From: Escherichia coli
GTDB lineage: Bacteria > Pseudomonadota > Gammaproteobacteria > Enterobacterales > Enterobacteriaceae
Length of the DNA: 27,235 nt
Reading direction: 5' to 3' (one strand)
Assembly (NCBI RefSeq): GCF_003334385.1
Contig: NZ_QOWN01000058.1
The notes beneath the pieces were generated by a model that saw nothing but the letters and a program-made list of their open reading frames with translations, ran no database searches and was not told the origin of the DNA. Of the stretch, positions 5,335-5,379 are shown piece after piece. A program made the translations under genes and the position numbers. How positions within the stretch are numbered: the first letter of the stretch is position 1; the number at the start of each line of letters is the position of its first letter.

Positions 5335-5379
5335 CTTCTAAGTCGTGGGCCGCAGGTTCGAATCCTGCAGGGCGCGCCA
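5335..5379 (+). repeat. attR: 45-nt 3' fragment of tRNA-Arg (argU), not a functional tRNA
   Basis: CTTCTAAGTCGTGGGCCGCAGGTTCGAATCCTGCAGGGCGCGCCA matches the anticodon-stem-to-acceptor 3' half of tRNA-Arg(UCU). The sequence upstream does not form the 5' half. Confidence 0.8.

Follow-up and report, generated by a model that had tools for sequence, protein, structure and literature searches.

The attR core of an ompT-carrying lambdoid prophage at the argU locus of Escherichia coli

Attachment sites located in tRNA genes give rise to a regenerated tRNA gene together with a displaced fragment of it, and one class of the corresponding attP sites has been described as 'anticodon-centred' (PMC4383910). 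A well-known example in Escherichia coli K-12 is the prophage DLP12, whose 47-bp attR is similar to the 3' end of argU (PMC6379469) and goes back to Lindsey et al. 1989, as cited in PMC6379469 and PMC2629481. The gene ompT has been assigned to this prophage (PMC2588501). In the RefSeq record of strain MG1655 the 'cryptic prophage DLP12' occupies 564755..586056, so that it includes the attL core from its first base onward and stops one base short of the attR core, which lies at 586057-586103. DLP12 shares its integration site with phage epsilon34, and the integrases of these two argU integrators are about 80% identical (PMC2629481). The argU attR is an already known, annotated and published feature of E. 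coli K-12, and nothing in our study extends what is known of site-specific recombination.

Here we describe such a junction in a stretch of 27,235 nucleotides (NZ_QOWN01000058.1), referred to below as the window. The closest complete genome is that of E. coli SCU-104, from which the window differs by 7 substitutions over its first 26.6 kb and by an indel near position 26625 (26625-27235), in the hokE / IS421 region. Over the first 6.2 kb there is practically no difference between the two. Judged from these sequence differences, the source of the window is a close relative of SCU-104, distinct from SCU-104 itself. In comparison with DLP12 of MG1655, the 47-bp core is identical, the flank carries envY, the integrase bears the same name (intD), and the junction region agrees at 98.5% of positions across 2.6 kb. 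The att core, Int and locus are those of K-12 DLP12, which places the element in the DLP12 family. However, DLP12 of K-12 is a 21-kb defective remnant with appY beside ompT, whereas the lineage of the window is represented by a 46.8-kb prophage in which the lambdoid gene set is complete and the cargo is an operon encoding Mn-catalase and ferritin-like proteins.

Two further groups of elements can be compared with this locus. The phages 2G7b (Nesevirus), ev243, Turner and Kati, and those of the PhiR series, have ompT, the P arm, the 47-bp core, the P' arm and int in common with it. These phages differ in that their site is an unrecombined P-O-P' and in that an alpha/beta hydrolase gene, instead of the catalase operon, stands beside ompT. 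The second group comprises elements of the P22 / epsilon34 type (integrating into thrW and argU by heterobivalent tyrosine integrases, within the lambda Int paradigm). Their core is likewise a 3' tRNA segment starting from the anticodon loop, the distal P arm is common to the window and a thrW-type attR (97.6% identity), and int and xis adjoin attL. The Int protein of SCU-104 and its counterpart in a P22-like argU phage share 310/388 residues (80%), in agreement with the figure of about 80% given in PMC2629481. The difference lies in the phage body, which is lambda-like (cos packaging, long tail) and not P22-like. The features of the junction in the window are collected in Table 1.

Table 1. 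Features at and around the argU-derived attR core (positions are those of the window)
Feature	Position	Strand	Basis
Prophage right end: end of tail-fibre assembly gene, Mn-catalase/ferritin-like/stress cargo, methyltransferase, ompT, P arm	1..5334	.	SCU-104 annotation
ompT, last prophage gene (cargo/moron)	3959..4912	-	ORF; SCU-104 RefSeq annotation
ompT-proximal upstream region, travelling with ompT; probable promoter and 5' UTR	4913..5025	-	O157:H7 homology
AT-rich spacer of the phage lineage, from the ompT cassette to the P arm	5026..5202	.	Phage identity
attP-derived P arm kept in attR; putative Int arm and IHF sites	5203..5334	+	Phage conservation, motifs
Displaced 3' fragment of tRNA-Arg(TCT) gene argU (gene positions 33-77), non-functional as tRNA	5335..5379	+	45/45 identity; ARAGORN none; Rfam 24.8 bits
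Anticodon-loop heptamer CTTCTAA at left edge of core; inferred strand-exchange (overlap) region	5335..5341	+	Start of identity
att core, 47 bp, common to attR, attL, attB and attP	5335..5381	+	Exact 47-mer in all four
Chromosomal B' flank and envY, first host gene	5382..6186	-	119-120/120 with sequence downstream of argU in empty sites

The tRNA-derived sequence, CTTCTAAGTCGTGGGCCGCAGGTTCGAATCCTGCAGGGCGCGCCA (5335-5379), was compared with the 77-nt tRNA-Arg(TCT) gene as annotated in three E. coli genomes, SCU-104, GF124.3 and 19SZHZ869Rt (loci L002, L003 and L004). It is identical to positions 33-77 of this gene at 45/45 nucleotides and comprises everything from the anticodon loop to CCA (3' strand of the anticodon stem, variable loop, T arm and 3' acceptor strand included). 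Its first nucleotide is also the first of the anticodon loop (CTTCTAA), and the match to the intact argU locus extends 2 bases (TT) beyond CCA, so that the exact direct repeat is 47 bp long (5335-5381). The 5' half of argU is absent: the 70 bp to the left of the fragment are unrelated to argU, and only 21/120 positions of the left flanks are identical. ARAGORN predicted no tRNA gene across the whole window. The Rfam tRNA model produced an alignment at 5285-5368 with 24.8 bits (E 0.0068), below the gathering score of 29, and this alignment, which includes a D-arm-like hairpin, requires a 29-nt insertion. Neither program therefore revealed the complete cloverleaf of a functional tRNA (5' acceptor strand, D arm and anticodon arm), and the fragment is without RNA function. 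A chance match to argU was also considered; a 25-mer from the T arm and acceptor end has a single occurrence in the window at up to 3 mismatches (0.00 expected from 100 shuffles), and this uniqueness, together with the comparison of four att sites described below, rules such a match out.

The left end of the prophage, including attL, lies outside the window, and the second copy of the 47-bp sequence was read in SCU-104, the nearest complete genome, rather than in the source genome. The 47-mer occurs exactly twice in the SCU-104 prophage locus, once at each end (attL, L002:1648-1694; attR, L002:48444-48490). The tRNA fragment thus stands in direct repeat with an intact argU gene on the same replicon (L002:1616-1692), 46,796 bp upstream. 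The intact gene intD (L002:1708-2871), which encodes a tyrosine recombinase of 387 aa (Pfam PF00589 at 2.6e-46; phrog_10426/phrog_1), lies within the element only 16 bp downstream of this argU. It is followed by an excisionase ORF with a full-length match to phrog_2907 (5.9e-46). This 123-aa ORF (L002 2730-3098, minus strand) overlaps the start of int and matches the phrog_2907 excisionase end to end, whereas RefSeq annotates here only a 66-bp 'helix-turn-helix pseudogene'; as read by us, xis of the SCU-104 prophage is probably intact. Between the two cores are exo/bet/gam, a repressor gene, the O and P replication genes, the gene for antiterminator Q, and genes for lysis, terminase, head and tail; ompT closes the series, in front of the tRNA fragment. 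One tail gene contains an internal stop and the prophage may for this reason not yield particles. The tRNA gene at attL is identical to that of empty sites, i.e. argU has not been damaged by the integration.

The decisive evidence comes from a comparison of the 120-bp flanks on each side of the core in attL (SCU-104), attR (the window), attB (two genomes) and attP (two phages). In GF124.3 and 19SZHZ869Rt (L003, L004) fimZ, argU and envY are contiguous with nothing between them, and the DNA corresponding to positions 1-5334 of the window is wholly missing. These unoccupied sites, which contain the exact 47-mer, bear both outer flanks of the prophage: their left flank is identical to that of the SCU-104 attL (120/120), and their right flank to that of the window (120/120 and 119/120, respectively, in the two genomes). 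The inner flanks are joined via the same 47-mer in the free phages 2G7b and Turner (L007, L008), in which ompT, the core and int are contiguous. The left arm of attP is identical to the left flank of the window, and its right arm to the right flank of the SCU-104 attL (120/120 in each case, for both phages). With these identities the recombination of attP with attB into attL and attR is reconstructed base for base. The copy in the window is attR (P-O-B'), with phage DNA to the left of 5335 and chromosomal DNA to the right of 5381, where envY (annotated at 5425-6186) is followed by ybcH, nfrA, nfrB, cusSRCFBA, pheP and further genes. The earlier note, drawn up from the sequence of the window, had described 45 nucleotides identical to the 3' half of tRNA-Arg(UCU) that lack the 5' half and belong to no intact tRNA, and it had interpreted them as an attR generated by integration into argU and as a precise boundary between the prophage and envY with the core genes. 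This interpretation is supported, and both checks proposed in the note came out as predicted: no intact tRNA is present at the site, and in SCU-104 a second exact copy lies at attL within an intact argU directly followed by an integrase gene.

Taken with the genomic context, these results make it almost certain that 5335-5381 is the attR core (P-O-B'), where a lambdoid prophage of the DLP12 / phage 2G7b type, inserted in argU, ends on its right side. The phage attP contains 47 bp of argU from its 3' part (from the anticodon loop to CCA, plus TT), which a tyrosine integrase recombined with the chromosomal argU. Strand exchange would most likely take place in or near the anticodon loop, since the block of identity starts there, which fits the 'anticodon-centred' class (PMC4383910). 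By-eye inspection of attP for symmetric core-type Int sites flanking the anticodon loop showed no convincing inverted repeat on the phage side. The reaction regenerated an intact tRNA gene at attL beside int, and left the second, 5'-less copy of the 47 bp at a distance of 46.8 kb. Leftwards from this copy follow the P arm, in which Int-arm and IHF sites are predicted, the AT-rich spacer and the cargo gene ompT. The role of the fragment is that of a DNA substrate which, together with attL, Int, Xis and IHF, would permit excision; Int, IHF and Xis would assemble on the arms, and attL x attR may still be able to excise today.

The junction itself may have a longer history than the prophage that now adjoins it, or be independent of it. 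Among 5,426 complete E. coli genomes, the attB site is unoccupied in 2,538, and the same ompT-attR-envY junction is present in 1,591. What lies behind this junction differs: a 21-kb DLP12 with appY in K-12, an alpha/beta hydrolase gene in NCTC86 and the Mn-catalase operon in the window. Moreover, about 1,000 genomes of the B2 type (e.g. NRG 857C) retain only a 3-kb remnant with the order argU-int'-tail-fibre-remnant-methyltransferase-ompT, whose ompT-upstream/attR stretch is approximately 87% identical to that of the window (about 93% for ompT through attR). In strain GPEC1356 a prophage has been added in tandem to such a remnant, resulting in two copies of ompT. It is therefore conceivable that attR, the P arm and ompT were inherited from an older element, while the rest of the body was replaced by homologous recombination with incoming lambdoid phages or by their tandem integration, but we consider this the less likely history. 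The 47 bp would in that case be an ancient scar instead of the mark of the integration of the present 46.8-kb phage. The P-arm and P'-arm flanks are each identical (120/120) to the attP of 2G7b and Turner, which carry ompT beside attP, and the SCU-104 locus (L002) lacks a third, internal att copy, the sign of a composite element. Given the identity of both arms, one recent integration event by a phage with ompT is sufficient to explain the junction. An older origin would, in any case, leave the identity of the 47 bp as an attR core unchanged.

The remnants deserve a brief description of their own. That of NRG 857C (L006 2931-6572) contains a truncated int, the methyltransferase gene and ompT, and its attR has 4 uncompensated substitutions. 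In this strain envY is deleted, with its last 39 bp kept (the remaining sequence corresponds to window positions 5425-5463 and 6369 onward). One paper words the difference as an insertion of envY in other strains; the remnant sequence says otherwise, since the retention of the last 39 bp in B2-type strains identifies the absence of envY as a deletion. In GPEC1356 (L005 4960-9281) the newer ompT-carrying prophage precedes the old B2-type remnant, and the att site in the middle has the attP-like structure P-core-P', with phage arms on both sides.

The DNA adjoining attR on the phage side is a highly variable cargo slot. Between the tail-fibre assembly gene and ompT the window contains a block of four genes (342-2555, minus strand), whose products are named in RefSeq a manganese catalase family protein, two ferritin-like proteins and a small 'general stress protein'. 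Searching the cargo ORFs against NCBIfam gave only a match to Mn-catalase, below the cutoff. This block resembles the yciGFE-katN stress operon of Salmonella. In other elements the slot is filled by appY (K-12) or by an alpha/beta hydrolase gene (NCTC86 and the free phages).

Quite a different interpretation, that the P arm and core together encode an unusual functional tRNA or tRNA-like RNA, draws on the GenBank record of phage Turner, in which an 84-nt 'tRNA-Pro' is annotated over attP (L008:4496-4579, corresponding to window 5296-5379), and on the sub-threshold Rfam match with its D-arm-like hairpin. We consider it very improbable. ARAGORN was negative for the window and for the attP regions of both phages, Turner and 2G7b, and the 29-nt insertion needed by the Rfam alignment, which stays under the gathering threshold, swallows the real anticodon arm. 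The bases conserved across the phages show no compensatory changes and include an IHF-like DNA site, while GGCGCGCC at the acceptor end is palindromic, so that any nearby GGCGCG seems to pair with it. On the grounds of the ARAGORN result, the lack of covariation and the palindromic acceptor end we rejected the 'tRNA-Pro' of Turner; an annotation artefact due to the 3' half of a tRNA gene in attP is its most likely explanation. Finally, a tRNA pseudogene formed by local duplication of tRNA-Arg and 5' truncation, with no site-specific recombination, would also appear as a 5'-less fragment, but this possibility is negligible and already refuted, given that the direct repeats exactly bracket a phage genome with an integrase gene and that the free-phage attP and the empty attB rebuild both junctions base for base.

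The attR core is separated from ompT by 422 bp with a GC content of 34%. The earlier note had regarded this whole interval as an AT-rich, phage-derived ompT promoter region. Its phage origin stands, because free phages have the interval and empty sites lack it. The base composition is not uniform, however (26% GC at 4913-5130, 45% at 5201-5334), and the interval is composite. Only about 113 bp follow ompT when the gene is relocated, and the core-proximal part of about 130 bp is the P arm of attP. Homology to the relocated ompT of O157:H7, situated near minCDE, stops at 5025, i.e. 113 bp upstream of the ATG. The spacer 5026-5202 is identical or near-identical in 2G7b and Turner and about 87-93% identical in the B2-type remnant; it is absent at the O157:H7 ompT locus. 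A scan of 4850-5480 revealed one sigma-70-like match (TTGACT-16-AAAAAT at 4979-4952), compared with 1.5 expected from shuffles. With a count not above chance, the sequence by itself does not fix the position of the ompT promoter, and no published transcription start site of ompT was found in the literature searched.

In O157:H7 strain PNUSAE146744 ompT and an alpha/beta hydrolase gene (L012 4360-5426; window 3901-5025) lie in an IS-rich island near minCDE, and the argU site of this strain is unoccupied. Large differences in ompT expression between strains have been ascribed to sequences that lie upstream of the start codon by more than 150 bp (PMC6854850). The relocation of ompT in O157:H7 probably underlies the 'distal promoter' difference published for EHEC (PMC6854850).

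The P arm contains several candidate protein-binding sites. Motifs of the GGGAC type are present at 5210-5215, 5221-5226 and 5275-5280, and two tandem copies of GGGACA are also found in the P' arm next to int (L002:1743, 1754). A sequence with a 12/13 match to the IHF consensus (5303-5315, minus strand) falls within the most conserved block. By analogy with lambda and P22, we infer that these represent Int arm-type and IHF sites, respectively. No paper on footprints of the P22 arm sites was found in the literature searched, and the assignments therefore remain predictions. The arm is not restricted to ompT-carrying phages: 5212-5381 shows 87% identity to BIS08P22 and 5274-5381 shows 90% identity to SEN22, two P22-like phages of Salmonella that are without ompT. 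Cores of the Salmonella type differ at core positions 10 and 17. Furthermore, the thrW-type attR of ETEC1722 (L013 3001-3175), a P22-type site with a 3' fragment of tRNA-Thr, shares the block 5210-5291 (97.6% identity) and differs from the window in the core-proximal ~43 bp and in the core. This sequence pattern suggests an exchange of arm-site modules between integrases with different tRNA targets.

A more speculative idea, which we regard as a long shot, is that two attP-derived segments upstream of ompT have a second function as the 'distal promoter' controlling how much OmpT is made: the P arm (5203-5334), with its predicted binding sites for Int, IHF and Xis, and the spacer (5026-5202). 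If true, the large differences in ompT expression between strains would be explained by differences between generations of argU prophages or by the presence of recombination proteins on the arm.

The gene ompT adjoins attP in the free phages 2G7b, ev243, Turner and Kati and in those of the PhiR series. It is thus the cargo of temperate phages that are still circulating, and not merely of the dead remnant in K-12. The argU junction permits the typing of prophages at the argU hotspot, and the 47-bp core is an exact landmark between horizontally acquired DNA, including the protease gene ompT, and the core chromosome of E. coli.
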